The position numbers and the translations under genes are program-made. Positions 4,354 through 35,728 of a stretch of DNA of 64,000 nt are shown one piece after another (within the stretch, counting starts at the first letter, position 1; every line of letters begins with the position of its first letter). The notes beneath the pieces were generated by a model. It was given only the letters and a program-made list of their open reading frames with translations. It did not search any database and was not told the origin of the DNA. Source of the DNA: Bacilli bacterium. GTDB taxonomy: Bacteria > Bacillota_I > Bacilli_A > RFN20 > CAG-826. The stretch lies in contig JAZQOV010000006.1 in assembly GCA_045628045.1 (NCBI GenBank), forward strand, positions 16,116-80,115, written 5' to 3'.

Positions 4354-4431
4354 ACGTCGTGTCCGCTAGCCCTATTAGAGAAGTGGACTTATCAACGATT
4401 CCGTAGTTTTCTACAAACCGAGATTAACTAA

Positions 4432-4507
4432 TGGCGGATCCTACGAGAGTCGAACTCGTCTCGCCTCCGTGACAGGGAGGCATCATAAACCGATAGACCA
4501 AGGATCC
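4432..4507 (-). tRNA. tRNA-Asp (GTC)
   Basis: Reverse complement GGATCCTTGGTCTATCGGTTTATGATGCCTCCCTGTCACGGAGGCGAGACGAGTTCGACTCTCGTAGGATCCGCCA. Anticodon stem CCTCC/GGAGG, loop CTGTCAC, T-loop TTCGACT, CCA encoded. Confidence 0.9.
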
Positions 4508-14884: not shown

Positions 14885-14958
14885 TGGTGCCTCCACGCAG
14901 AATCGAACTACGGATTGATCCTTACCATGGATCCGTTATACCATTTAACTATGGAGGC
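14885..14958 (-). tRNA. tRNA-Thr (GGT)
   Basis: Reverse complement GCCTCCATAGTTAAATGGTATAACGGATCCATGGTAAGGATCAATCCGTAGTTCGATTCTGCGTGGAGGCACCA. Anticodon stem GATCC/GGATC, loop ATGGTAA, T-loop TTCGATT. Confidence 0.85.
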
Positions 14959-17310: not shown

Positions 17311-17378
17311 AATTAATCTCCTAATTAAATTATACATATCAGCGGCTTTATTTACAAATAAAGTCTTAAATATATTTT

Positions 17379-18604: not shown

Positions 18605-18626
18605 AAAAAAAGCACATTAATGTGCT
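18605..18626 (-). terminator. Terminator overlapping the oppF stop codon
   Basis: Minus strand reads AGCACA-TTAA-TGTGCT followed by TTTTTTT. The stem includes the last oppF codons. Confidence 0.6.
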
Positions 18627-21600
18627 TTTTTATTTTTTGCCTTTTTATCAAGCTCTTTAATTTCTTCGCGATATTTTGCCATTTCCTCAGAGTTTGCTAA
18701 GATCCAGTGACCCTTTGTAATTTCTTGAAGGGTTGGCTTTTCTTTAGAATAATCATGAACTTTATTTGGTTCATAAACAATTCTTTTACGTGTTTTCTCT
18801 GTTAATGGATCTGGTTTTGGAATAGCAGAAAGAAGTGCTTTTGCGTATGGATGGAGTGGATGCTTAAAGAGTTCTTCACTTGAAGCAAGTTCCACCATTT
18901 CTCCAAAATACATAACTGCAATTCTATCGCAGAAATATTTAACGACTGAGAGGTCGTGAGCAATAAACATAATTGTTAAGCCCATTTCTTCTTTTAAGTC
19001 ATTAAGAAGATTGATAATTTGAGCTCTAATTGAGACGTCAAGAGCAGAAATTGGTTCGTCACAAATTAAGAATGAAGGATTCATAACAAGTGCACGAGCA
19101 ATGCCAATACGTTGTCTTTGTCCACCTGAGAACTCATGTGGATAACGAGAAGCGAATTCTGGAATAAGTCCGACTTTTGTTAAGACATCTGCAACCTTTT
19201 TGCTATTAGCAAACTTATTGCGTTGACCTTGAATCTTTAAACCTTCTTGAATAATGTCTTCAACAGTCATTCTTGGATCAAGAGAATCAACAGGGTCTTG
19301 GAAAATCATTTGCATCTTGCTAAGAAGCTTCTTGTCAACATGTCTATTATCATAGTTAATTTGTTTAATAATAGCTTTTTGAGTTTTCTTGGTTTCACTA
19401 ATATGATTTTCGATTTCTTTAATTTGTTTTTCGTAACTTGATCTAATTTGATTTTGTCTTTTTGATGATTCTGAAACATATTTCTTGTTATAAACACCTT
19501 TGGTGACAAGATAATCAATAAACTTAATTATAAAGTAAACTGCTGCACCAATAGCAAGATAAGCAACAGGAACGTACTCTGCAAGGAATGCAAAACAGAG
19601 TAATTCAAATAAATAACCGAGAATGCTAGATAAAACAATCTTTGCACGTTTTGCCTTAATAAATGGTGAATTATTTAAAACATCTTTGTTTCCGGTTCTT
19701 AAAAGCATAAGGATTCTAAGTGGAATCATGCAAATAACAACAAATACAATAATTCTTAAAGCTAAAATAATATCGATAATTTCTAATGTGCCTAAGATAA
19801 TTGCACCTAAACATGTTAAGATGCAAATAACTGTAAAAATAAATGCTGCGAGGAAATTTTGTCCTAAATATCTAAAATAATCTCTTAAATAACGGCCATG
19901 TTTCTTAGCATGGGTTTTCTCAATCTTATTTAATTTAGCTTCGCTAACCTTGATTTGTTTACGAAGTGATTTCCTATCTAAACGAAGAGAGCGTTTAAGT
20001 TCTCTATATTTTCTATTACGCATTTTCTTATTCTTAATTTCGTCATATTTAAGAACTTCGCCTTCGAAATTAATCTTTAAATTTGCGTAGTCTTCACGTT
20101 TATTAATAAGTGTGCTATGTGCAAAGAAAAGATTTTTATCTTCTTTTCTATTTTTTGCTACATAATGAGTTTCAAATTTCTTAATTTTTCTAAGAGCTTT
20201 AACGTTGTTATGCCCTTTAATTTTGGCTTCTTTTCTAAGATATTTTGCTTCTTTTATTTGTTTATCATAGAAAGTAGCAATTCTGTTTTTGAAATTCTTA
20301 AATTCAACATCAGCAAATTTCTTGTTATATCTAATTTGAACGATAATAAAATCAAGAATTAAATAAGCAAAATAAATTCCTGCGGATATTGAAATCCATT
20401 TTTGAGAAAGTGCTTTGCAAATAAATGCAATTCCGCAAATCTCAAAAGCAAGTGATAAAACCACGAATAAAGCAACTTTAATAGGTCTTACAATAATAAA
20501 CCCAGAATTGCTTTCTCCTTCAGCTTTACCAACTCTAATGAGAAGTAGTACTCCAAAAGGAATAAGGCAAATAATTGCAAATACAATATAAGTTAATAAT
20601 GAATTAATTGATATTAAGTTAGATAAGCTAAGAAGCAATAAGCCAACACCAATTAGAATTGCACCAATAATTGCAATAATTGATTCAAAACTATATTTTT
20701 TAACGAATTTTGAATAATCTCTTAAGAATGAATGGCTCTTTCTTAGGCGAACCTTTTCAATTGATTTAATACGTTTTTCAATTTCAGCAATTGCTTCAGA
20801 AATCGAGATTTCGCTTAAAGCGAATGCATGATTAATTTCATCTCTTTTAACTGAACGTTGTTTTCTGTTCTTAATAAACTTTAAAGTACGTAATTCAGCT
20901 TGATAATTAATATCTAAATTTGCGTATTCTTCATAGCTACTTGCAAGAGACTTTTGAAGTTCTGATAAAACTTTAATGTCTTGTTTATTAGCTGCAACAT
21001 AACGAAGTTGTTCTTTCTTTACAAATTTAAGAGCTTTAATTCGATTATGTTGTTTGATTCTAGCTTCTTTAATGGCGAATTTAACATCGCTAATTTGATT
21101 TTTATATGAAATTTTTGTTTCTTTAATTCGTTTTGCTAAAGGAGCGTCAAGATGTTTTCTCCTATAAGCTGCTCTAATAAAGAAGAAATCAATAATGTTA
21201 TATAAAATATAAACACATGCTCCACAGAAGAAGTAAATTCTTGGTAAATAGCCAAGTATTACAGCAAATCCAATGAGTTCAATTAGAACTGACAGAATTG
21301 CAAAAATGGCTATTTTTATTGGTTTAATTTTGACAAATGAAACACCACTATCATCATTAGATTTATTAAGTCTAAAGATTTTAACCATTTCAAATTGCAT
21401 GATTAAAAGTAAACCAACAGTTACATATGTTAAGTAAGGATTTAGATCAACAAAATATGAAGCGCTAAGGAAAACTAATCCAAGTGCGATTAAGATTATT
21501 CCAATAATAGAAAGAGCTAATCTAAATGGATGTTTACTTCCTTGTTTAAAGTAATCCTTCAAGAAGTGATTATGTTTTCTTACACGGGTCTTTTCAATTC

Positions 21601-22204
21601 TACGAATATTGGCTTTAGTTTCTTTAATAACTCGTTTATTTTGTTTTTTAGTTACATTGTAACTATGTTTAATCTCAGATTTCTTGTTAGCACGAAGTTC
21701 TAAGTCTTCAATTTCTCTAAGATTAAGACATGCTTCTTCATAATTTGCTTTCAAATTAGCACGTTCTTCAATCTTTTCACCTAATGTTCTTTGGAGTTTA
21801 CGAAGTGGTTCAACATCCTTTTTATTAATGGTTACATAAGTAAGTTCAGAGTTCATTTCTGATCTAAGAGCTTTAATCTTATTTTTACCTTTAATTCTTG
21901 TCCATTTAATTTCTTTTTCATTCCATCTTTTGCCTGCGCTTATACGATGTCCTTCGAAATAAACAGAACCTGATGTAATGTTGTAAAGTCTAATTAAAGA
22001 ACGACCTGTTGTGGTTTTACCACAACCAGATTCACCAACAACACCAAAACATTCACCTTTTTTAATATCAAAAGATACATCGTGAACTGCTTTTGTGGTA
22101 AGTGAATTAGAGCCATGTCCAAACTTAAAATATTGTTTCAAGTGACGGACAGAAACTTCTACATTATTGTCAACAAGTGACTTATCAAAAGTAACCTTAC
22201 GCAT
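18617..22204 (-). CDS. oppF: OppF-type oligopeptide ABC ATPase carrying an ~837-aa insertion (three 279-aa repeats, 12 predicted TM helices) between Walker A and the Q-loop
   Basis: 1195 aa. Walker A GESGCGKTT at aa 57-65 and Q-loop MQMIFQDP at aa 964-971, followed by FSGGQRQR, LICDEPISALD, FIAHDL and the Opp C-terminal tail. The start overlaps oppD by 8 nt. Confidence 0.85.
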   Translation of the reverse strand: MRKVTFDKSLVDNNVEVSVRHLKQYFKFGHGSNSLTTKAVHDVSFDIKKGECFGVVGESGCGKTTTGRSLIRLYNITSGSVYFEGHRISAGKRWNEKEIKWTRIKGKNKIKALRSEMNSELTYVTINKKDVEPLRKLQRTLGEKIEERANLKANYEEACLNLREIEDLELRANKKSEIKHSYNVTKKQNKRVIKETKANIRRIEKTRVRKHNHFLKDYFKQGSKHPFRLALSIIGIILIALGLVFLSASYFVDLNPYLTYVTVGLLLIMQFEMVKIFRLNKSNDDSGVSFVKIKPIKIAIFAILSVLIELIGFAVILGYLPRIYFFCGACVYILYNIIDFFFIRAAYRRKHLDAPLAKRIKETKISYKNQISDVKFAIKEARIKQHNRIKALKFVKKEQLRYVAANKQDIKVLSELQKSLASSYEEYANLDINYQAELRTLKFIKNRKQRSVKRDEINHAFALSEISISEAIAEIEKRIKSIEKVRLRKSHSFLRDYSKFVKKYSFESIIAIIGAILIGVGLLLLSLSNLISINSLLTYIVFAIICLIPFGVLLLIRVGKAEGESNSGFIIVRPIKVALFVVLSLAFEICGIAFICKALSQKWISISAGIYFAYLILDFIIVQIRYNKKFADVEFKNFKNRIATFYDKQIKEAKYLRKEAKIKGHNNVKALRKIKKFETHYVAKNRKEDKNLFFAHSTLINKREDYANLKINFEGEVLKYDEIKNKKMRNRKYRELKRSLRLDRKSLRKQIKVSEAKLNKIEKTHAKKHGRYLRDYFRYLGQNFLAAFIFTVICILTCLGAIILGTLEIIDIILALRIIVFVVICMIPLRILMLLRTGNKDVLNNSPFIKAKRAKIVLSSILGYLFELLCFAFLAEYVPVAYLAIGAAVYFIIKFIDYLVTKGVYNKKYVSESSKRQNQIRSSYEKQIKEIENHISETKKTQKAIIKQINYDNRHVDKKLLSKMQMIFQDPVDSLDPRMTVEDIIQEGLKIQGQRNKFANSKKVADVLTKVGLIPEFASRYPHEFSGGQRQRIGIARALVMNPSFLICDEPISALDVSIRAQIINLLNDLKEEMGLTIMFIAHDLSVVKYFCDRIAVMYFGEMVELASSEELFKHPLHPYAKALLSAIPKPDPLTEKTRKRIVYEPNKVHDYSKEKPTLQEITKGHWILANSEEMAKYREEIKELDKKAKNKKAH

Positions 22205-23990
22205 GTGCTTTATCTCCCTTCTTTGCTTTTAAGGAGTTTGCAATACGAGTTTTAACGATACGTGGCATTGTAACTTTTGGAGCACGTGGATCAAGAAGCC
22301 ATGTTGCTGCATAGTGAGTGTCACTAACTTTAAATAAAGGTGGTTCCTTCTTAAAGTCAATTTCCATAGCATATTTACTACGTAAAGCAAATGCATCACC
22401 CTTTGGAGGGTAAATCATATTTGGAGGAGTTCCTGGAATTGCCTCAAGTTTTTCATTTGAGTCAACATCTGGAATTGAGGAAAGAAGAGCCCAAGTGTAT
22501 GGATGTCTTGGATCATAGAAAATTTCTTCTTCTGTTCCATATTCAACAATCTTGCCTGCATACATAACTGCGACTCTGTCTGCCATGTTAGCGACAACAC
22601 CTAAGTCGTGAGTAATGAAAATACAAGAAAGTTGTCTTTCTTTCTTTAAATTGTTAATAAGTTCAAGAATTTGAGCTTGAATTGTAACGTCAAGAGCTGT
22701 TGTAGGTTCATCACAGATTAAAATGTCTGGATCTGCTGTTAATGCAATAGCAATAACAATACGTTGTCTCATACCACCTGAGAATTCAAATGGATATTGT
22801 CTATAACGTTTTTCTGGATCTTTAATGCCGACTTCTTCCATAATCTTTAAAGCTCTAGCTTTAGCTTCAGCTTTTGTGATTCTTAATTTGCTTAAATATT
22901 CAATGCGAAGAGCTTTGCGTTCTGCTCTTAAACGTCTAAAGAAGAACTTGTGTCCACTACGTCTTACTCTTCTTGGAGCACTTCTGCGTTTGAGTTTATA
23001 TCCATAATGTTCACATTTCTTGTAAATCTTTACTTCACGTTTTGCAACTTTAGTTCTTGCTTTATATTCAGCTTTGAGTTTCTTAATAAGTGGAACATAT
23101 TTTGCCTTCAAAGCATTCTTGTTGTTTTTTGAATTTCCTTGAAGCTCTGCGATTTCAGTGTCAAATTTGATGGTTAATTGCTTAATCTTCTCTTTTGATT
23201 GCTTACTAAGCTCGGATTTTGATGCTCTTACAGCGTGCAAATTATATTTGTATGATTTAGCAAGTTGAGCAAGTTTAAGTTTTTTATTTTTCTTTGCTTG
23301 GGCAATTGCTTTCTTTGAAGCACGTTTGTTCTTCATTTTTTCAGCTGCAGCCACTGCACTTCTAAATTCATCTTCAGCGGCAAACTTAGATGCGCCATAT
23401 TCACGTTTAAGTGAATAAGCACGACCTTCAATGTCGTTTGTCACAAAGTTTCTTGCTTGAGCGATTTGTTTTTTCTTCTCACTCTTTAAGAACTTAATGT
23501 TTTCGCTATATTTAGCAAGTCCACTTCTAAGTTCTGTTTCGGCGTTTTTGTATGCAGAAAGTTCTTTAGAAACTAAATCTTCGTACATTTTCTTTGTGCG
23601 TGAAGCATTAATAAGCATAGCTTCAGTGATTTGTTTCCCAATACGCATGATTGGGTTAAGTGAAGAAAGTGGGTCTTGGAAAATCATTCCAATTTTGTGA
23701 CCTCTGATTCTGTGGAATTCATCCTCAGAAACTTTAGTGAGGTCTTCGCCTTCATACATAATTGAGCCTTCAACGATACGACCGTTTGAGGCTAAAATGC
23801 CCATGATTGCTTTGTTTGTAACTGATTTTCCGGATCCTGATTCACCAACAATACAAAGGGTTTCGCCCTTGTATAAATCAAATGAAACACCACGGACAGC
23901 TTGAACATAACCATGGTCAGTGGAGAAATGAATACGTAAATCTTTTACGCTTAATAATGGAGTTTTCTTTGTTGTAGCCATATTATTCAC
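22197..23990 (-). CDS. oppD: OppD-type oligopeptide ABC ATPase with an ~240-aa Lys/Ala/Glu-rich insertion in the helical subdomain
   Basis: 597 aa. GESGSGKSV, MIFQDPLSSLNP, FSGGMRQR, LICDEPTTALD and FITHDL are present. Residues ~131-369 are low-complexity and charged with no ABC counterpart. It overlaps oppC by 8 nt. Confidence 0.85.
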   Translation of the reverse strand: MNNMATTKKTPLLSVKDLRIHFSTDHGYVQAVRGVSFDLYKGETLCIVGESGSGKSVTNKAIMGILASNGRIVEGSIMYEGEDLTKVSEDEFHRIRGHKIGMIFQDPLSSLNPIMRIGKQITEAMLINASRTKKMYEDLVSKELSAYKNAETELRSGLAKYSENIKFLKSEKKKQIAQARNFVTNDIEGRAYSLKREYGASKFAAEDEFRSAVAAAEKMKNKRASKKAIAQAKKNKKLKLAQLAKSYKYNLHAVRASKSELSKQSKEKIKQLTIKFDTEIAELQGNSKNNKNALKAKYVPLIKKLKAEYKARTKVAKREVKIYKKCEHYGYKLKRRSAPRRVRRSGHKFFFRRLRAERKALRIEYLSKLRITKAEAKARALKIMEEVGIKDPEKRYRQYPFEFSGGMRQRIVIAIALTADPDILICDEPTTALDVTIQAQILELINNLKKERQLSCIFITHDLGVVANMADRVAVMYAGKIVEYGTEEEIFYDPRHPYTWALLSSIPDVDSNEKLEAIPGTPPNMIYPPKGDAFALRSKYAMEIDFKKEPPLFKVSDTHYAATWLLDPRAPKVTMPRIVKTRIANSLKAKKGDKAHA

Positions 23991-26088
23991 CTTCTCCTTT
24001 CAAACTTGGGTTAACAGCATCTCTTAAGCCGTTACCGAACAAGTTAAATGAAATCATAAGTAATGCGATGATAACTGATGGGAAAATTAACAAATATGGA
24101 TGGTTTGTTAACTCGATTTGGTTATCGGAAAGAATAACACCTAAAGAGGCTAAGTTTTTAAATCCTAAACCTAAATAAGAAATTGTAGCTTCGCTAAAGA
24201 TAACACTTGGGACCATTAAGACTGCTGAAGTAATAATTGTACCCATGGCGTTTGGAAGAATGTGGCGAGCAATAAGTCGACCATTCGAAGCACCAAGTGT
24301 TCTAGAGGCCAAAACGTACTCTCGACCCCTAAATCTATAGAACTGAGTACGCGTTGTTGCAGCTGTACCAATCCAACCTGTTAAACAAAGCGCTAAAGCG
24401 AATGTAAAGAAGTTGGATCCAAGTTTAATAATTGTAAGTGTCATAACGACAATCCATGGAACACCAGCAAGAATATCTGTGAAACGTTCCATAATAAGGT
24501 CGACTGCACCGCCAAAGTAACCACAGACAGAACCCCAGATCAAACCAAATAAGAAACAAATTACTGTTGTGGCAAGGCCAAGGAGAAGAGAAGTTCTAAG
24601 TCCTTCAAAAACATAAATAAACATGTCTCTTCCTGTAACATCTGTTCCTAAAATGAATTTTGGCATCTTATCAAGGCCATATTTCATCTTGTAGTAATAA
24701 ACTTCGACTTTAATATGATCAACAAGTCCTGTTGTTTGGTCTAATACGACATCATCTTTTGTAAAGACTTCAACAAATGGACATTTTTCTTTATTTAAAA
24801 TCTCACATTTGCATGAAGTTATTTCATAAAGTCCGGTTTCATCGTTAATTTCAGTCTTAACACTGTAATTGATGTATCCTTTGTTTTTAAGTTCTTTAAG
24901 TTGGGTGTTATACATATCAACAACACGTGCACCCAATACAGCTTCGTATGTGTCATAAGTGAATGAACAAAGAACTGCTCTTATTAAATAAGAGGTATCT
25001 CTAGAATAAGAGGTATTGGAGATATTTTTCCAATAACCTGGTTCTGTTGATAAACGTTTTGCTTCATCATTTCCATCTTTAAATGAATAAGCATTAAATA
25101 CTTCGTTTGCGTCATCGTCATAAGTATCGCACTTAATGTTGATTGATTTAATCAAAGTGCAAGCTTGTTTAACTTCTGGATTATTTTTAACTCTAATTTC
25201 AAGTGTTGGGTTATCAATTTTTGAATCTAAATTAAGAGCTTTTCCGTTTTCGTCTTTCATTTCTAAGAACATGTCACGGATATTAATTGAAGATTCTTGT
25301 CCACCAACATCATGAGACATTGCCCATGAAGTTAATTGGATTTCATAATCAACAAGATTTTGGCTGAATGAGAAGAATAAAGCATTCTCGGCATCTTTAT
25401 AACCTGTTGGGAATTCTTTTGTCTTTTCATCGCTTGCTTCAAGCTTAATAGTGTCATAAGTAACAAAGTTATCTATGATAAAATCACCATCAAGGTCGAA
25501 TTCTTTAAGTTTTGCTTCTGTAGCATAGCTAACGTATTCAACGTCTGCTGGCATTGAGAAATAACCGAATTGGACAAAACCTTCTCTGAAATATTTATTT
25601 GCAGAGGTAACGTATTGTTCTTCACCAATAACTAAATCAGAAACAGCGTTTTTGTTGTATCGATCGTAATCTGGTCCCCATTCATCTTTGTTTGAACTTG
25701 AAGTATCAACAGCAATGTCCACCATTTTCTTAGTTCCATCCCAGAAACCAGTGCCAGAGTTAAATAATTTTGGCTCTAAGTAATAAAGTTCTGGATGTGA
25801 TGAATTTGTTTCGTGAACTTCGCTTGTTTTGCAAACGACTGGAACAAGAACAGACATTACAAGTAAAATGCCTAAAATAACGGTTGCAACAACACTTGAT
25901 TTGTTTTTTGCAAATCTCCTTAAGCAGTCTTTAAAGAATGTGGTTGGCTTAGTCTCAAATTTTTGATCATGAATTTTAGTGTTCGCTTGAACAAGCTTAA
26001 AATCAGACTTAGAAATGCTTGGATCTAAGGCTTCGACTGGGAGATTTTTTAAATTGAATTCATTTTTAGCGTTTTTCATATTATGCAT
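23983..26088 (-). CDS. oppC: OppC-type permease with an ~390-aa extracytoplasmic insertion after TM1
   Basis: The C-terminal ~220 aa is a BPD_transp_1 core (LGTDVTGRDMF..., ...LASRTLGASNGRLIARHILPN). The start is set at ATG 26088, which has GGGGGAG just upstream and an 8-nt overlap with oppB, matching the other junctions. The ORF track extends to 26166. Confidence 0.8.
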   Translation of the reverse strand: MHNMKNAKNEFNLKNLPVEALDPSISKSDFKLVQANTKIHDQKFETKPTTFFKDCLRRFAKNKSSVVATVILGILLVMSVLVPVVCKTSEVHETNSSHPELYYLEPKLFNSGTGFWDGTKKMVDIAVDTSSSNKDEWGPDYDRYNKNAVSDLVIGEEQYVTSANKYFREGFVQFGYFSMPADVEYVSYATEAKLKEFDLDGDFIIDNFVTYDTIKLEASDEKTKEFPTGYKDAENALFFSFSQNLVDYEIQLTSWAMSHDVGGQESSINIRDMFLEMKDENGKALNLDSKIDNPTLEIRVKNNPEVKQACTLIKSINIKCDTYDDDANEVFNAYSFKDGNDEAKRLSTEPGYWKNISNTSYSRDTSYLIRAVLCSFTYDTYEAVLGARVVDMYNTQLKELKNKGYINYSVKTEINDETGLYEITSCKCEILNKEKCPFVEVFTKDDVVLDQTTGLVDHIKVEVYYYKMKYGLDKMPKFILGTDVTGRDMFIYVFEGLRTSLLLGLATTVICFLFGLIWGSVCGYFGGAVDLIMERFTDILAGVPWIVVMTLTIIKLGSNFFTFALALCLTGWIGTAATTRTQFYRFRGREYVLASRTLGASNGRLIARHILPNAMGTIITSAVLMVPSVIFSEATISYLGLGFKNLASLGVILSDNQIELTNHPYLLIFPSVIIALLMISFNLFGNGLRDAVNPSLKGEGE

Positions 26089-27127
26089 TCTTCTCCCCCA
26101 TTCTGATACGTGGGTCAATAAATCCATATGAAAGGTCGAGGACAATACCTGCAAGTAAACCGACAATTGTAAAGATTGCCATGTCTACTAAAAGGACGTT
26201 GTAGTCTGGGTTTGATTGATTTAAAGCCCTAATATAAATATTTCCAATACCTGGAATATCGTAAATTGATTCAAGAATCATACTTCCGGAGAAAACACCG
26301 ATGAATTCTGCCAAAATTGATGGAAGAATTGGAACGAATGCATTTCTTAAAGCATGACGAGTAATGGCTTGGCGTTTTGTTAAGCCTTTTGTGCGCGCGA
26401 GTAATAGATATTCGCTAGACATAACTTCACAAAGTTCAGCTCTAACGAAACGTGTGTAACCACAAACAGAGCCAAAGCTTAGTGACATAACTGGAATAAT
26501 GTAAGCTAAAATTCTTATTTTAAGTTCAGCATCTTTTGTTGGCCACATTGTTGGAAGACCGCCTTTGAATGCTAACAAATAAACTAAGAAAATGATAATG
26601 ACGAATGATGGGATAGAAATAAAAATCATAACAAGAGTTGAAATTGTGTGGTCAACCCAAGTATTTTTCTTAAGTCCTGCAATAATACCAAAAAGAATTC
26701 CTAAAGGAACTGAGATTAAAACAGAAATAATATTAACCGAGAATGAAATTGGGAGTCTATCAAAGATGATTTTGATTGCAGATGCATTTGGTTCAATAAC
26801 TGTAGATCTGCCCCAGTCCCATTTAGTTACAATGTTTTTAAGCCATGTAGTGTATTGTTCAAAAATAGGTTTTGTATAAAAATAGTGCTTAGTACCATTA
26901 AGCTCTGTAAATGATTCAAGAAGTTTACCAAGTTCATCATGAGGAACTGGCATATCAACAACATATCCAAGTTCGACTTGGTCAAGATAGAAAGCGTAAC
27001 GAACACTTTCAGTTGGAGATACAACGCCGGTTGGCGGTAAGGATTTGATTAAGAAAAATGTTAACGTCAAAATAATAAATGCTGTGACAAACGCTAACAA
27101 TATTCTTTTAATAGAGTACTTTAACAT
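26081..27127 (-). CDS. oppB: OppB-type permease
   Basis: 348 aa. N-terminus MLKYSIKRILLAFVTAFIILTLTFFL and the EAA-like block LLARTKGLTKRQAITRHALRNA. Confidence 0.85.
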   Translation of the reverse strand: MLKYSIKRILLAFVTAFIILTLTFFLIKSLPPTGVVSPTESVRYAFYLDQVELGYVVDMPVPHDELGKLLESFTELNGTKHYFYTKPIFEQYTTWLKNIVTKWDWGRSTVIEPNASAIKIIFDRLPISFSVNIISVLISVPLGILFGIIAGLKKNTWVDHTISTLVMIFISIPSFVIIIFLVYLLAFKGGLPTMWPTKDAELKIRILAYIIPVMSLSFGSVCGYTRFVRAELCEVMSSEYLLLARTKGLTKRQAITRHALRNAFVPILPSILAEFIGVFSGSMILESIYDIPGIGNIYIRALNQSNPDYNVLLVDMAIFTIVGLLAGIVLDLSYGFIDPRIRMGEKNA

Positions 27128-27268: not shown

Positions 27269-28456
27269 TTATAAATCGTACATTGTGTCGACTAATTTGT
27301 AGCCGTTATCTTTTGGATTTTGAACCTTAACAATTTCAAATTCTTCATCAAATATTTGGCTACGATTGAATGACCTAGTCCAGTGCTTTCCTTCGAGCTC
27401 ATATGACATTGTCATATCAGCTGTTAAAGTTCTGGTTAAATTCTTACTATTTAAGAAGTCTTGTTTATAGACATAATCATAGAGAGTATCTGTTGGAATA
27501 TTGAAGTAATTTATTTCATCATCAGCATCAACAACTTGCTTTGTTCCGCTCTCGCTATAAGAGAGTAAAAGTGATTCTTCATCAACAGAATAAAACTTTG
27601 TGGAGGACATGCCAATAAAGTCACTAAAATCTGTTTTTCCATCAAAATCTTCAAGAGCATCATTGACAATCTTTTCACCACTTACGAAGAAACAATTGAG
27701 AATACCTTTAATAGCTTCATCGTATGTTTCGTAGGCTGATGTATTTAAGTCAAAATAGTTCTTTTCGTTCTCGGTAATGTGGATCATTCTTACATATTGA
27801 CCATAGTTAATTTGGTAGAAAATCCATTTGCCATCTGATACTTCTGGAGCTCCGCCTTCAGTACGATAAGTGATGTAAGGTCCTTCAACAAAGAAGTAGC
27901 CTGCATCCATATCATAACCAATTGCTTCATAGCTCTGACTTCCGTATTGTTGAACTCCTTCACATCCATAGAATTCTTCACTATATTCGTAGCGAACGCA
28001 TTTTCTAACATGTGAATAGCTTTCAGAATTATATTTGTTCTTAATGTTATCAATAACACCTTGAACATCAGCTTTAGCTGATGAAGCAGAAACAATTGCT
28101 CTTACTTTTCTTGAAATTTTCCCATCTTTTGAAGTGATAAGAATGTCTGTGTAGCCTTTCTTGTGGCCAGTTAAAACACCAGTTTCAGAAACGCTAACAA
28201 TTGATTCATCATTTGATGTAAATTCAATTTGGTTAAGAGTGTATTGTTCTGGGAATGACTCGATTTCAATTTGTTTAGTTTCATTAACAGTTAAATTGTA
28301 ACTAAGTCTTTTCGCAGAGAAATAATCATTATCTTGATAACCAATACCAGGAAAATTATAGACATGAGTCTCAATATTCGCTGATTTAGGTCCACATGAA
28401 GCTAAAGCAACAATACCGACAGCACCTGTAAGAAGAGTTAATAATCTTTTATTCAT
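27269..28456 (-). CDS. Lipoprotein with a Big_2-like domain, function unknown
   Basis: 395 aa with lipobox LAS-C. The Big_2-like segment is SNDESIVSVSETGVLTGHKKGYTDILITS. Confidence 0.6.
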   Translation of the reverse strand: MNKRLLTLLTGAVGIVALASCGPKSANIETHVYNFPGIGYQDNDYFSAKRLSYNLTVNETKQIEIESFPEQYTLNQIEFTSNDESIVSVSETGVLTGHKKGYTDILITSKDGKISRKVRAIVSASSAKADVQGVIDNIKNKYNSESYSHVRKCVRYEYSEEFYGCEGVQQYGSQSYEAIGYDMDAGYFFVEGPYITYRTEGGAPEVSDGKWIFYQINYGQYVRMIHITENEKNYFDLNTSAYETYDEAIKGILNCFFVSGEKIVNDALEDFDGKTDFSDFIGMSSTKFYSVDEESLLLSYSESGTKQVVDADDEINYFNIPTDTLYDYVYKQDFLNSKNLTRTLTADMTMSYELEGKHWTRSFNRSQIFDEEFEIVKVQNPKDNGYKLVDTMYDL

Positions 28457-28476: not shown

Positions 28477-31400
28477 TTATTCGTCTGATAAATCAACCGC
28501 GTGATAGTTGATTGATGGAGCACCACCATTAATTGAAAGTTCATAATAGAATTCATAGCAGAATTCAAAATTAAGTCTTGATTCAATAAATGGATTTTTG
28601 TGCCATTCGTCTTTATCTGAATCTTTGAAGCCATTTTGTTCTTTAATTGCTTCATTGACTTCTTGAGCCTTTTCTTTTGTTACAGTAATAATCACTTCGT
28701 GATTATCCTTATCATAAACGATGTTTCCATCGCCTTTTTCAGCAAGGGTAATATTTCCTCTTCCAACAACATAAACATCGAATCTATTAGCGTCAAATTC
28801 AGCTTTCTTACCTTCAACATTGGATTCAGCAAAATCAACATTGAGTTTAATATTAAATCCTTCGTACATGTTTCCTTGAATATCATTTACACCATGAATT
28901 TCAAAGACACCAGGTTTCATTGGTCTAGTTGCTGCACATAAATTAACTGGTTCAATCTTCTTACCATTTTCAACGATTCCGCCGTGGTCTGCAACTTCCC
29001 AAAGGGCATCAAATGACCATTTTTGTCCATCATAAATGATTGGATTCTTTTCGTCGATTTCAGAGGTATCTGGACCCCAGTTAAGTGTAAAGCTTGAAGA
29101 GTTATCGCTCTTTAAAACTTCCATAAAGTTGAGTGGGTTGTAAGTATTTCCGCTAATAGCACCAAAGCCAAGATCGAAACATCCTTGCATCATCCAGACG
29201 TTGTAAACGTCTTCCCAGTTAGTAACTGCGTCTTGTTCAACTTTAAGTTTTACTTTACCACCGCAAACAGCGTCATCGTTAAATGCAGTTTCGAAATATG
29301 ATTTAATATCTTCACCATATTCTTTAATATCTGTTTGATACATCCATCTAATGTGGATTGTAATTGTGGTTGGATCAGCTTTGCTCTTGCCTAAAACAAT
29401 TTTTCCTTCTTTTGAAAGTTGTTGTACTGCATTTCTGAAGCAGTCAACAGCTTTATCATAGTTATAACCGAAGTTTTCGGCATAACCTGCAACAGCGTCT
29501 TTATGAGCTTGATATTCGTTGTAGCTCTTACCACCATCTTTATTTCTCATTTGATATGCATCTGAGAAGTAGTTTGTTGATGGAACAACGCCACGTTTTT
29601 CAGCGAATTGATATCTATCAATTGAGTAGAATAAACCATCAAGGAAGTCTTGATTTGACATCCATGGTTTAATATCCCAAGTTTGGTTTGCTGGCCATTT
29701 GCCTTGTGGGCCAAATGTTTCGTCCCATTGTTTTTGAGTCATTGAGTTAACATTTAATTTAAATGTTGAGTCACCTTTTGTCTCATAAACACCTGGTTTT
29801 CCTCTCCATTCTTGTGTCTTTTTACTTGGAACACCAGCGGAGTCAAGGTTACCAGCTTCAAGTTGTTTCCAGTTCTTTTCTGTGTCTGTTGAAGTATCAA
29901 TAACACGGTAGTCAATACCTGGAATGTGATAACGTTCACCAACTTCGAACCAGTTATCATTTCTTGTGAAAATAATTTCTGAATTCTTCTTCCAATTTGT
30001 AAGTGTAAATGGACCTACACAAAGTGTATAGTCAAGAATTGCATCATCATTTTCGTTATTGAAAGTACCATAAATCTTAATGGAATCTTTCATTGTAGAC
30101 TTAATTGCCTTTTCACCCATGAATAAGTCTTCTGGGAGAGGTGAGGTTAAGCTACTTGAAAGTGTGTACATAGCAGTAAATTCATCAATTGGGTTGATTA
30201 ATTCAATATCCAAATAATCAAGATTATTTGTGTCATCGTGACCTTTTTGAATACCTAATTTAGAATTACCATTTGCGTCAACTTTAGTAAATTCTTCCCA
30301 TTTCTTATTGATTTCTTCTTTAGAAGTCATTGATTTGGTTTCATTAAAGTAACGTTGTGCACCTTTAATACCATAAGAAGAATCGTTAGCCATTTCAGTA
30401 CCACGAATAATGTTATTTGATCCTGTTAAAAGGAGTTTATAAGCAAATTCGTAGTCATCAATTGTAATGCCTCTATTGTTAAAGCCTTGTCCTTGGAGTT
30501 TGCTTGATGCAGTTGTGTATTTTAAATTTGCACCATTAACACCATCGGTTTTAACGTAAATTCTCCATTTTTTATAAAGTTGAGTTGCGGAATATTCCAT
30601 CGGAATAGGTGCGTCATTAACTTTCTTTTCTGAATAACCAGTCATTTCACCTTTTTCGTTAAATTGTGGTGCTTTGACTTCGTCAGCAGCTAAACATGGA
30701 TACCAAACATATGAAGTTTTACCTTCAAGTTTTGTTCCCCAATAAGTTGAAGTAATATAACTTGCAAGATCACTTACTTGTGAACCAGTAGCACTGTATT
30801 GGTTAATCTTAAGTGAGTCTTGAGCAATTGATTCATGTAAGAATGTTGGATTTTTCTTTCCTTCATCTCCGGGAAGAGTTCCGTTTAATTTGCCTTCGGC
30901 AAGTAATCCGAAACCATAGCCTTGAATGTATTCACCATCGGTTGGAAGTTCAACACGATCGCTATATCTAACAAGTCCACCATTATCAAAAAGTGTGATA
31001 CCTGTTAAATGTGTATCCATTGCATATTTTTCAAGCTTTCCTAAGATTTCTGCACGTTTGTTGAGTTCTTCTGTTGTTGTACCACCAGAATAGTTTTGTC
31101 CACCAGTGAACTTTTCAGCATCTTCAACAATCAAAATAGATTTCTTTAAAGCTTTTGTTTCATCTGACTTAGTTTCGGTAACTCTAAAGTTAACTGTACC
31201 AGTTGATTTTGGAGAAATCTTACCGTTTTCATCAATTGTTGCTACTTTTGGATTTGTGGATTCAAAAGTATATGTTCTTCCGGCTGTATCAATACCATTG
31301 TCAAAAACTTGAACACTTTCATTTGTTGAGCTTAATGAAATGATTGATGCGCCTGATTTCATTCCAACTGAAAATGAGAAGTAAACTTTTTCTTCACTTG

Positions 31401-31500
31401 GATTATCTGATGTACCAGGATTACAGCCAACAAGGTTAGTTGCACCAAAAGCAACAAGTGCTAAAGCAACTGAATTAGTAATTAATTTTCTTTTACTCAT
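28477..31500 (-). CDS. oppA: Oversized OppA-like (family 5) substrate-binding lipoprotein with an N-terminal Big_2-like domain
   Basis: 1007 aa with lipobox NLVG-C. Big_2-like segment NPKVATIDENGKISPKSTGTVNFRV. SBP_bac_5-like blocks include FTLTNWKKNSEIIFTRNDNWF. It sits in the opp locus. Confidence 0.75.
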   Translation of the reverse strand: MSKRKLITNSVALALVAFGATNLVGCNPGTSDNPSEEKVYFSFSVGMKSGASIISLSSTNESVQVFDNGIDTAGRTYTFESTNPKVATIDENGKISPKSTGTVNFRVTETKSDETKALKKSILIVEDAEKFTGGQNYSGGTTTEELNKRAEILGKLEKYAMDTHLTGITLFDNGGLVRYSDRVELPTDGEYIQGYGFGLLAEGKLNGTLPGDEGKKNPTFLHESIAQDSLKINQYSATGSQVSDLASYITSTYWGTKLEGKTSYVWYPCLAADEVKAPQFNEKGEMTGYSEKKVNDAPIPMEYSATQLYKKWRIYVKTDGVNGANLKYTTASSKLQGQGFNNRGITIDDYEFAYKLLLTGSNNIIRGTEMANDSSYGIKGAQRYFNETKSMTSKEEINKKWEEFTKVDANGNSKLGIQKGHDDTNNLDYLDIELINPIDEFTAMYTLSSSLTSPLPEDLFMGEKAIKSTMKDSIKIYGTFNNENDDAILDYTLCVGPFTLTNWKKNSEIIFTRNDNWFEVGERYHIPGIDYRVIDTSTDTEKNWKQLEAGNLDSAGVPSKKTQEWRGKPGVYETKGDSTFKLNVNSMTQKQWDETFGPQGKWPANQTWDIKPWMSNQDFLDGLFYSIDRYQFAEKRGVVPSTNYFSDAYQMRNKDGGKSYNEYQAHKDAVAGYAENFGYNYDKAVDCFRNAVQQLSKEGKIVLGKSKADPTTITIHIRWMYQTDIKEYGEDIKSYFETAFNDDAVCGGKVKLKVEQDAVTNWEDVYNVWMMQGCFDLGFGAISGNTYNPLNFMEVLKSDNSSSFTLNWGPDTSEIDEKNPIIYDGQKWSFDALWEVADHGGIVENGKKIEPVNLCAATRPMKPGVFEIHGVNDIQGNMYEGFNIKLNVDFAESNVEGKKAEFDANRFDVYVVGRGNITLAEKGDGNIVYDKDNHEVIITVTKEKAQEVNEAIKEQNGFKDSDKDEWHKNPFIESRLNFEFCYEFYYELSINGGAPSINYHAVDLSDE

Positions 31501-31518: not shown

Positions 31519-34500
31519 TTAGAATTTAAGCCATGAGAATAAATTCCCAAATATATTCATGAAGAATTCAGCAATTACTACTAATAGGCTCTTCTTCATA
31601 GAAGAAGCTTTTGATTTTTCTTTACCAGTAGTAACTGTAACATCGTACATTGTAGTGAATTCTTTTTCTTCACCATTTTCATCAACTCTGATGTATGTGA
31701 CTTTATTGTTCTCAAACTTAAAGTCATCATTAATGGTGAATTCTGAACCTTGTGCTATTTCAAAGTCACTATAACTTCCATTAAAGTGACAAATTGCTGT
31801 GGTTTCTCCACGTGCGTAATCAACTACTTTAATAAATACACGTGAATCTGAGAATGATGTTTTAGCAGATGAAGAAGCTGCTGCTTCCATGATTGATTTC
31901 TCAAATTCTGAAACATACATCTTTCTTTGTGAATCATACTTAACATCGACCATCGTACTTCCTACAATCGCGTACGCGCATTTAGTTTCCTTATATGTTA
32001 AGCGAATCATATCTTTACCATTTTGGCTAAATTGTTCGATGGTTTCGATAACTGGTGATTCACTATCGATGTGAAGTGTGTATGCTTTTGAAACCCAAGC
32101 ACCTGTGGAGGCTAATTGGTAATTGAACTTAAGTTCGTATTCTCCACTTGGGAAGGCCTCTTTTGTTTTAATATCGTAAAGAGGAATTAAGGCAAGTGCT
32201 CTATGAGCAATATATCCTGCGCCAAGATAATCAGCATCAACATGTGATTTATAAAGTGCATATTTACCAGCAGTGTCACCGAATAAGCTATCTTCGAGAG
32301 CGTTACGGTAAACTTCAATGCCGTTTGCCTTATTTGTGATTGTGAAATAGTTATCTTTAACAGATCTATACACGAATTGTTGAACAATTAATGTATTTGT
32401 TTTTGATGGGTTGCCAAGATAAATATTTTCTTTTGGATTATCTGATAAATCGCTTGAATATGGATCTGGAACTGTTGCAACTTCGTGGAATCCTGCGAAA
32501 TTCTTAATGTTATTATCATTTGTGATAACGCCATTCATATTTACGTTTTGGAGGTTCTTTGCGTAACCTGCAACCATGAGTGAGCCCATGTCAGCGTTAT
32601 CTTTACCAAGAAGTGATTTTGCAATGTCGTTGATGAGGTCACTACCGTAGATAGTGTTTTCTTCTTTCTCAAATGAGAAAGGTTCAACAACTGGAGCACT
32701 TGAATATGAAGCGCCATCAATTCTATCGCTTAATGAGTAGAAACCCATGTAAGGGATGGAAAGATCAATGTAGCCATCAATTGATTCAAGTGAAACATAA
32801 CCTTCAAGATAAGTTCCGCCTTTGTAAAGTTCAGCGATTTTGTCCTTTTGTTCTTTGGTAAGTTCATATGATTTTAAGCTAACAGCTGTTTCGCCATTTG
32901 CTTTTAATGTAACTTGACCACAATCAACTGAGGCGATTTCGATATCTTTAATTGATTGATATTCGCTACTTGGAACTTCTTTCCAAACATATTTTCCAGA
33001 AGTGTTATCACAATAATATAAACCTTCTTTGAGAACACCTTGTGGATCTTCTGCTAAATATTGTGATTCGTTTTCGAAGTATTCAATATCTTTAGATACT
33101 TTGATGACATCTTTATAGTTTGCAGTGCCATCTGCTTCGATAATCTTTTCTTCTTCTGGTGAATAGAATACGAAACCTGGAATTGATTTGACTGAGTCAA
33201 CTTCAACAGGAGTTCCGTAGTCACTTGTAAGAACTTTGTTGCTATAAGCAACAGCTGGTCTCATAACGTTGTATTTAACATTATAAGTTCTAGCAGTGCT
33301 TGATTCGTTATGACCAATAAAGCTTAATGAAATTTTTCCTTTTGAAACATCATCTGAGTTTCTAAGTAAGATTTTGGCTTTATTAAGTCTTGTGCCATCA
33401 ATGTCCATACCTTCAAGATAAACATCTGTGTTATAGGCACCTTCTAAGTTAACAAGACCTGCACCTTGCATACGTGGTGAGGTAAGTGAAACTTCATTAT
33501 TTTCATCATTAGCATTGCTATCATGCATTGGAATAGCAGTTGACATCATCTTCATGTCAATTGTTTTTCTTGCTTCGGCAATAACTTTAGAAGCATTCTT
33601 GTCTGATAAATTTAATTCACTTGTTGTTTTTGATAAAACAAGAGCCATTGCACCTTCAAAGTTTGGTGCAGCCATTGAGGTACCATTAAGGTACTCATAT
33701 GCGCTATATGGTGTTTTCTTTTCTTGTTTATTTTGTGGCCAGACAGCACCTTTAATATTGCTACCTGGAGTTGTAATTTCTGGTTTCAAATCAAGATCAT
33801 AAGTTGCACCATCAGTTGAGAAGTCACTAATTGTACGTGATAAAACGTTTTCAGATGCAGTATTTCTCTTAATTTTGAGTTTTCCTTGTGGTTTTGCTTC
33901 AAACATTGGTTTATCTTTGAAAAGTGCAAGTGCGATTGGGAATCCAATTGATTTTGCACTATCACCAAAGTCACAAGTAAATGTAAAGTCTTGTTCGGTT
34001 GGGTCATTATTAATAATGACTAAAGCTTTAGCACCATGGTTATCAGCCGTTTCGTATTTTTCTGAGAAGTTGATTTTACCACGATTGAGAACAACTATTT
34101 TTCCGGATACATCAAGGTTTTTGTAATCTTTTTCTTCACCGAAACCTTTAACATAGACATAGTCTAATTCAATTTCTTGCTCTTCAGCAGTTGGTTCAAA
34201 TCCTTCTTCATCAGGATCGATAACACCGCCATTAATAAGTTCAAGGAATCTATGTTCGTTATCTGGATAAGTAGCAGCTTGTCCTTCTCTATTGACGATT
34301 TGATCAAGATAAGGAACAACTGCGCCATCTAAATCGAATGAATCAGCATAGAATGTTTTTGTTGGTTGTCCAGCAGCAACTGTCATTGTTGAGGCATTAT
34401 TTGCGAAAGAACCCATAACACCAGTTTCAACAATGTCTTTTGTCCAGTTGGCATAGCCACCTGTAAATGCATAAGACATTTTTCCGCCGTTACCTGCAGC

Positions 34501-35613
34501 AATAGCAGATAAAATACCAGCGTCTGAAATCTTTTGAAGTGTTCTTTGGGAAATTGTGCCTTTTTCAAAGTCTGATAAATCAGAACCAATTGAAACGTTG
34601 ATCGCATCAACACCAATTGTGATACAGTCTTCAAGAGCTTTAATAAATGCAAGTTCACTGAATGATCCATATTCACCAAGGTTGCCAGCTTCGCTGACTG
34701 GGGTTTTATGGACGTCTGTGAAGACTTTCATTAAGACTAATTGTGCTTTTGGAGCGATACCTTTGTATGTTTCAGCATTTCCTGCTGCAATTGATGCAAC
34801 GTGAGATCCGTGAAGATCAACTGTTGATTCAACATTGAAATCACTCGGAACATCAACTGTTACACGGTCATAAGTATCACCAGCGTAGTCATAATAGAAT
34901 GGAACTTTATTGTTGAAATAGAATGATCCTTCCTTTCCAGCGCCATTAACCATTCCACCATTTTTAACTGCTTCCTTATAGGCATTTGTTTTGGTGAGGT
35001 TATTCTTAACATTCAAGTAAGATAATCTTTCCTTTGTGCCTGATGGAAGAGGGCTAAATGTTTCGTGGTTGTAGGCAGGATAGGTAACTCCGTCTTCAAC
35101 GTGTTCGCCTCTTAAATAGAATTCGTTGTCGAGGACTGCAATTAATGTACCTTCGCCTTCAGCAGTTCCGCTTGGCTTATTCATTGTTGTGGCAGAGACG
35201 TTTTCTTCTTCGCCTTGAATTTCACCTTCGCGTTTTTTAAGGTCTAATGAGATCATCTCACCACGAGTTTTCTTAACGATGTGTTGTCCGTTAACTGTAA
35301 CGTACTTAACACCAGGAATTGCTTTGATGGCTTCAACATCTTCTTTGTTTGCAGAGACAACGACTGCGTTATTCAAAAGTGTAAGATTGTCACTTTGGAT
35401 AGCGTTTTTGTTAACACTGTGTTTAATTTTTTCAAATACAGCGTTTTGTTGTTTGATAGCTTTCTCAGTTGAGATAGTGTCAATATCATCTTCAAGCTCA
35501 ATGATGAGTTTTGCATCAATTGGTTTTGATTCAAATGATTTTTGCTTGAGAGAGTTAACACCGCTAACTGACATAGCTGCAATTACACCGCAGAGTAATC
35601 CAACTTTTAGCAT
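31519..35613 (-). CDS. Subtilisin-family (S8) cell-envelope protease with a PA domain and a C-terminal hydrophobic anchor
   Basis: Catalytic triad blocks GTLIAVLDNEF (Asp), DLHGSHVASIAAG (His) and NGTSMAAPNFEG (Ser). PA-like insert KIVVLNRGKINFSEKYETADNHGAKALVIINN. The C-terminus LLVVIAEFFMNIFGNLFSWLKF has no LPXTG motif. The start is set at ATG 35613 (GGAGG 7 nt upstream); the ORF track starts at 35685. Confidence 0.85.
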   Translation of the reverse strand: MLKVGLLCGVIAAMSVSGVNSLKQKSFESKPIDAKLIIELEDDIDTISTEKAIKQQNAVFEKIKHSVNKNAIQSDNLTLLNNAVVVSANKEDVEAIKAIPGVKYVTVNGQHIVKKTRGEMISLDLKKREGEIQGEEENVSATTMNKPSGTAEGEGTLIAVLDNEFYLRGEHVEDGVTYPAYNHETFSPLPSGTKERLSYLNVKNNLTKTNAYKEAVKNGGMVNGAGKEGSFYFNNKVPFYYDYAGDTYDRVTVDVPSDFNVESTVDLHGSHVASIAAGNAETYKGIAPKAQLVLMKVFTDVHKTPVSEAGNLGEYGSFSELAFIKALEDCITIGVDAINVSIGSDLSDFEKGTISQRTLQKISDAGILSAIAAGNGGKMSYAFTGGYANWTKDIVETGVMGSFANNASTMTVAAGQPTKTFYADSFDLDGAVVPYLDQIVNREGQAATYPDNEHRFLELINGGVIDPDEEGFEPTAEEQEIELDYVYVKGFGEEKDYKNLDVSGKIVVLNRGKINFSEKYETADNHGAKALVIINNDPTEQDFTFTCDFGDSAKSIGFPIALALFKDKPMFEAKPQGKLKIKRNTASENVLSRTISDFSTDGATYDLDLKPEITTPGSNIKGAVWPQNKQEKKTPYSAYEYLNGTSMAAPNFEGAMALVLSKTTSELNLSDKNASKVIAEARKTIDMKMMSTAIPMHDSNANDENNEVSLTSPRMQGAGLVNLEGAYNTDVYLEGMDIDGTRLNKAKILLRNSDDVSKGKISLSFIGHNESSTARTYNVKYNVMRPAVAYSNKVLTSDYGTPVEVDSVKSIPGFVFYSPEEEKIIEADGTANYKDVIKVSKDIEYFENESQYLAEDPQGVLKEGLYYCDNTSGKYVWKEVPSSEYQSIKDIEIASVDCGQVTLKANGETAVSLKSYELTKEQKDKIAELYKGGTYLEGYVSLESIDGYIDLSIPYMGFYSLSDRIDGASYSSAPVVEPFSFEKEENTIYGSDLINDIAKSLLGKDNADMGSLMVAGYAKNLQNVNMNGVITNDNNIKNFAGFHEVATVPDPYSSDLSDNPKENIYLGNPSKTNTLIVQQFVYRSVKDNYFTITNKANGIEVYRNALEDSLFGDTAGKYALYKSHVDADYLGAGYIAHRALALIPLYDIKTKEAFPSGEYELKFNYQLASTGAWVSKAYTLHIDSESPVIETIEQFSQNGKDMIRLTYKETKCAYAIVGSTMVDVKYDSQRKMYVSEFEKSIMEAAASSSAKTSFSDSRVFIKVVDYARGETTAICHFNGSYSDFEIAQGSEFTINDDFKFENNKVTYIRVDENGEEKEFTTMYDVTVTTGKEKSKASSMKKSLLVVIAEFFMNIFGNLFSWLKF

Positions 35614-35728
35614 ATCTTGTCCTCCTTTTTTATTTTTCTTTTGAAAAATCGTGTATATATTATACTCGTGTGTGTAGAAATGCAATAATAATTTATTTTT
35701 TTCTTTGAAAAAAGGAAATTATTGCAAT

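Follow-up and report, generated by a model that had tools for sequence, protein, structure and literature searches.

A predicted four-helix membrane module nested in triplicate within the ATPase fold of an OppF-type peptide importer subunit

To our knowledge, the nucleotide-binding domains (NBDs) of ATP-binding cassette (ABC) transporters are treated as soluble cassettes that dock on separate membrane domains, and where the two are fused the membrane domain stands at a terminus. Here, we analyzed the oppF gene found in a 64,000-nucleotide (nt) stretch of DNA (the window; positions 16,116 to 80,115 of contig JAZQOV010000006.1, assembly GCA_045628045.1), whose host is, judging by its sequence, an uncultured Acholeplasma-like gut bacterium. 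In the product of this gene, a module of the membrane-spanning type is nested inside the ATPase fold rather than at a terminus. The module, which contains four predicted transmembrane (TM) helices and occurs three times in the protein, has no earlier description, and only two uncultured lineages are known to have it.

Canonical OppF and DppF proteins, which were compared through solved chains (Escherichia coli OppF, 8z21_D; E. coli DppF, 8z1v_D; and Mycobacterium tuberculosis OppD Rv1281c, 8j5q_D), share with the window protein an NBD with all motifs and a C-terminal oligo_HPY domain (E-values 9e-99 to 5e-63), as well as the partners OppA, OppB, OppC and OppD. They differ in that the residues flanking the insertion site are about 12-25 residues apart in the solved OppD/OppF structures, whereas about 870 residues with 12 TM-type helices separate them in the window OppF. 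Long OppF forms of Mollicutes and Acholeplasma-like organisms also carry a large insertion inside the NBD, but no hydrophobic segment was present in the insertion of any of the 80 reference-genome and 80 metagenome loci examined. The sequence-only reading of this DNA had mentioned that long OppF forms are annotated in some Mollicutes. This was right insofar as the best NCBIfam match was the Mollicutes long OppF family NF043078 (the MMSYN1_0168 equivalog, 649 profile positions; 1.1e-113), but the match, broken into three separate stretches, scored 381.1 bits and did not reach the cut-off of 800. The cut-off of the enterobacterial OppF equivalog NF011659 (540 bits) was not reached either (305.4 bits).

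Two further systems resemble this architecture. In SMC and Rad50 proteins, an ABC ATPase fold is likewise split by a very long helical excursion and its halves reassemble. However, their excursion is an antiparallel coiled coil with a hinge or zinc hook and leaves after the Q-loop, whereas that of OppF leaves before the Q-loop, gives no heptad signal and is capped by TM hairpins; OppF had no match to SMC_N in Pfam. The type I importer OpuA/ProV has a basic helical insertion in its NBD, a cationic helix-turn-helix near the membrane that binds anionic lipids and gates transport (PMC7673798). It consists of two short peripheral helices that do not span the membrane, and has no sequence relationship to the OppF insert. 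The OpuA motif lies before Walker A and not after it, and we take the motif and the OppF insertion to be in the same beta-subdomain.

OppF and its three repeat units

The oppF gene (18617..22204, minus strand, as are the features given below) is an open reading frame (ORF) of 1195 amino acids (aa) with an ATG start and a TAA stop, in a window that reads cleanly in genetic code 11, has long and densely packed ORFs and varies between 28 and 38% in G+C content. A ribosome-binding site, GAAGGGAG, stands upstream of the ATG, and the start of the gene overlaps the end of oppD by 8 nt; oppF is translationally coupled to oppD within a complete opp operon. Its product was matched by ABC_tran (PF00005; 1.2e-29) in two stretches, with 104 bits against a cut-off of 25, and by oligo_HPY (PF08352; 3.6e-08) at aa 1104-1144, with 34.1 bits against a cut-off of 27.1.

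The N-terminal part of the NBD (aa 1-100, 21905..22204) contains Walker A (GESGCGKTT, aa 57-65, nt 22010-22036) and runs into the conserved base of a helical arm, RWNEKEIKW (nt 21902-21928). The C-terminal part (aa 938-1195, 18617..19393), which aligns to all three solved chains named above, contains the base of a return helix, INYDNRHVDKKL (nt 19325-19360), followed by the Q-loop (MQMIFQDP, aa 964-971, nt 19292-19315), the signature (FSGGQ, aa 1025, nt 19118-19132), Walker B with its catalytic Glu (FLICDEP, aa 1045, nt 19052-19072), the D-loop (SALD, aa 1053, nt 19037-19048) and the H-switch (IAHDL, aa 1081, nt 18950-18964). The full set of catalytic motifs is thus intact, and by its domains and motifs the protein is a true member of the OppD/OppF (peptide/nickel importer) subfamily of ABC ATPases. 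The sequence-only reading had put Walker A and the Q-loop some 900 residues apart instead of the normal 40 or so; our motif search placed both exactly at the positions it had given, with 907 residues between aa 57 and aa 964.

The insert consists of three repeat units, each comprising a basic helical arm, four TM-type helices and a return helix: unit 1 at aa 101-379 (21068..21904), unit 2 at aa 380-658 (20231..21067) and unit 3 at aa 659-937 (19394..20230). When aa 91-960 were compared with themselves without gaps, identity was 30.8% at an offset of 279 and 25.3% at 558, and about 11% at every other offset. The units align over 279-280 columns with pairwise identities of 28-34% in protein and 51-52% in DNA, and units 1 and 2 share 94 identical residues compared with 21 +/- 4.4 in shuffled sequences (Z=16.8). 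The anchors proposed earlier (KALR/KALK/KALR at 111/390/669 and FLKDY/FLRDY/YLRDY at 214/493/772) were found where they had been reported. The claim of an exact 279-aa period without indels was correct for the period, but the tail of unit 3 is shortened by a deletion of 1 residue. In the DNA, the repeat has left only weak similarity at a spacing of 837 nt (one 47-nt stretch at 64-77% identity), and DNA self-comparison found no long exact repeat among the units. Continuity of the ORF was borne out as well, since all 1195 codons form a single intact frame: none of the 837 codons of the insert is a stop, while its other two frames contain 49 and 135, and the chance of a stop-free insert given the base composition is about 1e-33.

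The four hydrophobic segments form a cassette within each unit. The cassette of unit 1 (21176..21520) has TM1 at aa 229-247, TM2 at 256-276, TM3 at 298-317 (with Glu310) and TM4 at 325-343 (with Asp339); the corresponding segments are at aa 509-527, 536-556, 577-596 and 604-622 in unit 2 (20339..20680), and at aa 784-804, 812-835, 856-874 and 878-896 in unit 3 (19517..19855). Insertion energies of these segments, obtained by summing the Hessa scale, range from -4.6 to +3.3 kcal/mol, with 8 of 12 at or below 0. TM1 lies at -4.2 to -4.6 kcal/mol, TM2 at -3.5 to +3.3 (weakest in unit 1), TM3 at -2.5 to 0 and TM4, with an Asp inside the helix, at +1.0 to +2.6. For comparison, the lowest value for any 19 residues was +7.3 in the ATPase part and +11 or more in the arms. 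AlphaFold2 modeled unit 1 as all-helical (mean predicted local distance difference test score, pLDDT, 71.7; 83-92 in the arm and about 45-68 in the cassette) and all 12 hydrophobic segments as helices. Both analyses agree with the earlier claim of four TM-type helices per unit and 12 in total.

The distribution of charges in the loops obeys the positive-inside rule and fits cassettes with both ends in the cytoplasm. The loops between TM1 and TM2 (7-8 residues) contain no Lys or Arg and those between TM3 and TM4 (3-7 residues) contain 0-2, whereas the 20-residue loops between TM2 and TM3 have 4-6 and the arms that join the cassettes (161-165 residues) have 41-49. With an even number of helices per cassette, the chain would end up in the cytoplasm again and the NBD halves could assemble, as the sequence-only reading had supposed; the loop charges agree with this, and the catalytic motifs are intact. 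Because the outside loops are only 3-8 residues long, the module has no extracellular domain and a role in binding extracellular ligands is ruled out. Taken together, the insert has the helix hydrophobicity and loop charges of a polytopic integral membrane protein, as which it is predicted. The arms are strongly basic (net charge +9 to +20). They had been described as coiled-coil-like, but a crude test of heptad periodicity gave z values of at most 1 in the three arms (the last return helix had z=3.1); the coiled-coil reading was therefore rejected, and the arms are better called basic and helical. Comparison of the two halves of a cassette, TM1-2 and TM3-4, with hhalign gave no significant sign of an internal duplication (probability about 1%).

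A nested series of insertions at one site

The sequence-only reading took the protein for a textbook NBD that had been interrupted. This did not hold, as relatives carry a helical insertion of variable length at the same site, between the strand after the Walker A helix and the strand leading into the Q-loop, and the arm has soluble homologs. In 66 of 109 related OppD/OppF domains from the 80 reference-genome loci, Walker A and the Q-loop are 40-59 residues apart. The gap in OppF grows to 120-340 residues in Acholeplasma-like reference genomes and measures 125-272 aa in metagenome relatives. Genomes with long gaps include metagenome-assembled genomes labeled Bacilli, Acholeplasmataceae, Mollicutes and Izimaplasma, as well as Acholeplasma oculi and Liberiplasma; the neighboring relatives among the matches listed are metagenome-assembled genomes of Bacilli and Acholeplasmataceae from horse feces and rumen.

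Among these relatives, four stages could be distinguished. The shortest is a hairpin of 85 aa (gap 120-128), found in P0057 (gap 120; NBD 80% identical to that of the window) and at loci L102-L110. It is followed by a soluble arm of about 170 aa (gap 210-216) at loci L083-L091 from Joint Genome Institute (JGI) metagenomes, whose NBDs are 88-93% identical and whose arms match the unit-1 arm over query residues 1-206 at 58-67% identity. In the third stage (gap 355), one 4-TM cassette of about 150 aa sits at the turn of the arm. This stage is represented by P0121, a single-unit ortholog of 638 aa encoded at locus L001 (ENA ERZ1767598, NODE_1000), with an NBD 96% identical to that of the window OppF in its N-terminal part and 90-92% in its C-terminal part. 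The fourth stage, three arm-plus-cassette units (gap 907), was seen in the window OppF only. Across the series with gaps of 125-128, 210-216, 355 and 907 aa, identity in the NBD parts is 88-97%. A residue-level alignment showed that the base of the arm, RWNEKEIKW ... INYDNRHVDKKL, is kept in every stage. Thus, on the evidence of these alignments, the window OppF is the extreme of a clade-wide, variable, basic helical insertion at one site.

The opp operon of L001 is syntenic with that of the window and has the same gene order. Identities to the window proteins are 94.5% for OppB, 80% for OppD, 78% for OppC, 76% for OppA and 61% for the Big_2 protein.

Some relatives show other peculiarities. 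In DNA, the OppF genes of L083 (gene from 250) and L086 (gene from 2687) do not differ at all in the C-terminal 229 codons (100% identity), while identity is only 89% in the N-terminal NBD and, for the protein sequence, 55% in the arm; this pattern reflects either a recombination mosaic or a chimeric contig. Many relatives (P0002-P0056 and P0058-P0120) are fusions of OppD and OppF of 1090-1380 aa, and many OppF proteins of the clade have long low-complexity C-terminal extensions ending in DUF2188 (PF09954), one of them with SHOCT (PF09851). The window OppF has no OppD fusion, DUF2188 extension or SHOCT.

To estimate how common the module is, a profile of the three units was searched against all 1.84 billion representative proteins (E up to 0.001) of a library clustered at 50% identity, in which variants may hide inside one cluster. 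Only two matches were found, both of them OppF relatives. P0121 matched over the full unit (E 8e-32), whereas P0122 matched over the first 70 residues of the arm only (E 1e-5). P0122 (356 aa; locus L002, 99-1169) joins an OppF N-terminus and about 70 arm residues to a C-terminus resembling PD-(D/E)XK nucleases, on a contig of 1366 bp with 3.5x coverage. It is most likely an assembly chimera, and hints at a third lineage with a long arm. Within the scope of this search, the full module was therefore found only in the window OppF (three units) and P0121 (one unit), which bears on the question of spread and copy number raised earlier. No TM-bearing variant was present among the matches listed from 185,579 species-representative genomes or in JGI metagenome contigs, and a scan of metagenomes with the four-unit alignment gave no match. 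Word-indexed searches of 5.8e9 proteins returned nothing for the three-unit profile and only the protein itself for aa 101-937; both missed P0121 as well and are weak negatives. An exact-sequence lookup of the window OppF found no identical record.

Nor did the module belong to an already characterized family, a point that the sequence-only reading had left open: there was no Pfam or PDB-fold match to it, and no NCBIfam match for the 279-aa unit. Pfam aligned DUF2157 with TM1-2 in units 1 and 2 at E-values of 0.009 and 0.025, but the score of 16 bits is below the cut-off of 32 and the hits were discarded as driven by composition. A Foldseek comparison of the unit model with the PDB produced only noise, such as alpha-pore-forming toxins (best E 0.36, TM-score 0.19). 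The idea that the insert is a mobile element or intein was also rejected, as its units are diverged and in frame and it matched no nuclease or intein domain in Pfam or NCBIfam. Literature searches turned up neither a report of TM helices inside an ABC NBD nor one of the insertion in Mollicutes OppF.

The insert and the NBD evolve at very different rates. Between the window and L001, the NBD has a synonymous divergence (dS) of 0.52-0.77 and a ratio of nonsynonymous to synonymous divergence (dN/dS) of about 0.05. Between the units of the window, dS is 1.2-1.6, which is near saturation, and dN/dS is 0.40-0.55, about ten times the NBD value. The L001 unit is as distant from each window unit (24-34% identity) as the window units are from one another; only the unit-1 arm and the L001 arm are somewhat closer (43% identity, dS 0.92). 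Among the soluble-arm orthologs, most pairs with NBDs 92-97% identical had arms only 50-70% identical at the same third-position identity. At the sequence level, the high dN/dS and low identity show that the insert changes fast and under weak constraint. As far as these comparisons go, the triplication probably preceded the separation from the lineage of L001, although synonymous sites between units are so close to saturation that they give no reliable date relative to the species split. The earlier statement that the triplication is old and maintained was therefore supported in its first part, as dS between units exceeds that between the NBDs of the window and its ortholog, but not fully in its second, considering the weak constraint on the insert.

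Some features are nevertheless kept. Unit length is the same within one residue across the three window copies, and the charged/hydrophobic pattern recurs in all four known units, together with the arm motifs ANL.xNY, IEK and FLRDY. The Asp of TM4 is invariant in 4 of 4 units; the Glu of TM3 likewise occurs in each of them, although its position in L001 is displaced by one helical turn.

Possible roles of the nested module

We favor, with a probability of about 0.5, a reading in which OppF is the functional ATPase of the Opp peptide importer, as predicted from its motifs and operon, and in which a clade-specific helical arm of this protein came to anchor it as an integral membrane segment and was later triplicated in tandem. 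The membrane-proximal cationic arm would at first have made a peripheral electrostatic contact, which then turned into a permanent anchor, and the arm-cassette unit would have been duplicated by unequal crossing-over. The 12 helices would form six membrane-inserted hairpins, each cassette having its two ends in the cytoplasm, and the first arm and the last return helix would reunite the two ATPase halves. The cassettes would then act as membrane staples that hold OppF, and OppD with it, at the membrane beside OppB and OppC. What selection would have kept is the length and hydrophobicity of the helices, the TM4 Asp, the TM3 Glu and the ANL.xNY, IEK and FLRDY motifs; the rest of the insert may change fast because its precise sequence would matter little for an anchor.

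This tether is suggested by the intact ORF and motifs, the synteny of the operon, the nested series at one site, the match of the unit-1 arm to soluble arms, the hydrophobicity of the segments and the positive-inside pattern, and also by the all-helical AlphaFold2 insert, dN/dS below 1 without stops, the invariant TM4 Asp and the short outside loops. The cationic helix-turn-helix of OpuA was taken as a precedent (PMC7673798). On the other hand, several points weigh against it. Membrane insertion of the 12 helices is a prediction, and four of them, TM2 of unit 1 and the TM4 of each unit, have marginal hydrophobicity (+1.0 to +3.3 kcal/mol). The full-length AlphaFold2 model is poor (pLDDT 61, predicted TM-score 0.36), too weak for the geometry or the membrane-facing of the insertion site to be read from it. 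Only two sequences carry the module, so that the conservation statistics are thin. Moreover, a tether has no obvious advantage, as OppB and OppC hold OppF in any case and its relatives do without one, and the conserved acidic residues in the TM helices hint at something beyond a plain anchor.

An unlikely but serious alternative is tolerated neutral growth, in which a hydrophobic stretch at the permissive tip of the arm was duplicated by unequal crossing-over without gaining a function of its own, and the module persists only because disruption of the frame would kill OppF. The wide variation of insert length in the relatives (reference genomes, 120-340 aa; metagenomes, 125-272 aa) would be expected from such a process, as would the tenfold higher dN/dS, the difference in copy number, the restriction of the module to two lineages and the large lineage-specific insertions that OppD and OppC of the same operon also have. 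However, the dN/dS of 0.40-0.55 is still below 1, and unit length stayed within one residue across three copies whose synonymous sites are saturated. All four units also retain the TM4 Asp, several of the arm motifs and the pattern of hydrophobic and charged stretches, and twelve uninserted hydrophobic helices would be costly if they were useless.

It is also conceivable, and in our opinion improbable, that the module senses the state of the membrane: the cassettes and basic arms would report lipid charge, ionic strength, tension or potential to the beta-subdomain beside the ATP site and in this way gate hydrolysis, as an integral-membrane version of the cationic sensor of OpuA (PMC7673798). 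The net charges of the arms, the conserved acidic residues of TM3 and TM4 and the position of the insertion, between Walker A and the Q-loop as the two elements that bind ATP and communicate with the permease, speak in favor of such a role. Against it, the module turns over very fast, with units only 24-34% identical between orthologs whose NBDs are 92-96% identical, and its copy number is 1 or 3 in close relatives. No recognizable sensor domain was detected by Pfam, NCBIfam or Foldseek against the PDB, and units 2 and 3 have no direct contact with the NBD.

More speculatively, the 4-TM cassette, with its conserved intramembrane Asp and Glu and its basic arm, might be a working membrane module connected to the ATP-binding core of the importer. 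It would gate the uptake of peptides either as a regulator of a new class, embedded in the NBD and integral to the membrane, or as an element coupled to protons or ions, with the copy number (1 or 3) tuning the response. Lipid charge, voltage, protons and tension would be the candidate inputs in this wall-less gut bacterium. We consider this doubtful.

Very little speaks for an extra translocation path, in which the three 4-helix bundles would form a channel or transporter of their own (e.g., for protons or ions) driven or gated by OppF. Twelve TM helices with conserved Asp and Glu inside the bilayer could be read in this way, but the searches made found no channel or transporter similar in fold or sequence, a close relative has a single unit, residues turn over too quickly for a packed pore, and the two hairpins of the cassette are not detectably related. 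A channel, like an external sensor, is also made less likely by the very short outside loops and the rapid change of the sequence. Finally, although the three-unit form is on a single NCBI contig without an exact duplicate on record and the related metagenomic ORF P0122 is clearly chimeric, a mis-assembly, chimeric contig or decaying pseudogene was rejected as scarcely credible, because the units have diverged to about 52% DNA identity without any long exact repeat, so that an assembler could neither create, expand or join nor collapse the array, because the junctions are in frame and the insert is stop-free, and because an independent assembly (L001) has the same arm-plus-cassette module in the same operon.

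The opp locus and the meaning of the module

The oppF gene closes a co-directional block in the order S8 subtilase, OppA, Big_2 lipoprotein, OppB, OppC, OppD and OppF. OppD (597 aa, 22197..23990) has an insertion of its own, a helical stretch of about 270 aa rich in Lys, Arg and Ala and without a TM segment, between the Q-loop (aa 105) and the signature (aa 404). Both ATPases of the importer thus carry long basic arms; the insertion site in OppD differs from that in OppF. Matches of OppD to SMC_N (24.5 bits against a cut-off of 40) and AAA_21 were sub-threshold, and its best NCBIfam family, the Mollicutes OppD NF043079, was matched with 481 bits against a cut-off of 740. The OppC permease (727 aa, 23983..26166) has its TM1 (at about aa 92) separated from the permease core, which starts at about aa 527, by some 410 aa of hydrophilic sequence, presumably a large extracellular domain; the 78% identical OppC of L001 has 701 aa. 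The OppB permease (348 aa, 26081..27127) shows six hydrophobic peaks.

Upstream are a Big_2-domain lipoprotein (395 aa, lipobox LASC, 27269..28456) and an OppA-type family-5 solute-binding lipoprotein (1007 aa, lipobox LVGC, 28477..31500), a pair conserved in L001 (the Big_2 protein in the same position), and an S8 subtilase with PA and Fn3-like domains (1388 aa, 31519..35685), which probably feeds the peptide importer. Together, the subtilase, OppA, the Big_2 protein and oppBCDF look like a unit for surface proteolysis and peptide uptake. A clostripain-family (C11) peptidase with Big_2 and Big_3 domains (9513-12011) and an Endonuclease I homolog (16318-17337) are candidates for further secreted or surface degradative enzymes. 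The window also has a T-box leader (60785-60993, 114.5 bits) upstream of a 902-aa ORF (58039-60747) that is probably an aminoacyl-tRNA synthetase, and four tRNA genes (4281-4507, 14888-14958 and 50448-50521, minus strand). A 600-aa ORF (35779-37581) and a 262-aa ORF (12051-12839) had no Pfam match at E up to 0.001.

The architecture of this OppF would surprise specialists of ABC transporters. The reach of the finding is limited to a module in two uncultured lineages, with a role predicted from sequence. Close relatives preserve a record of its stepwise growth, from a hairpin through a soluble arm and one 4-TM cassette to three units. If the helices insert, the series would be a case from nature in which a soluble segment became transmembrane hairpins, and the window OppF would prove that the fold of an ABC ATPase tolerates an excursion of about 870 residues with 12 membrane crossings. 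In that case, the module may also represent a new mode of anchoring or regulating an importer in wall-less bacteria.

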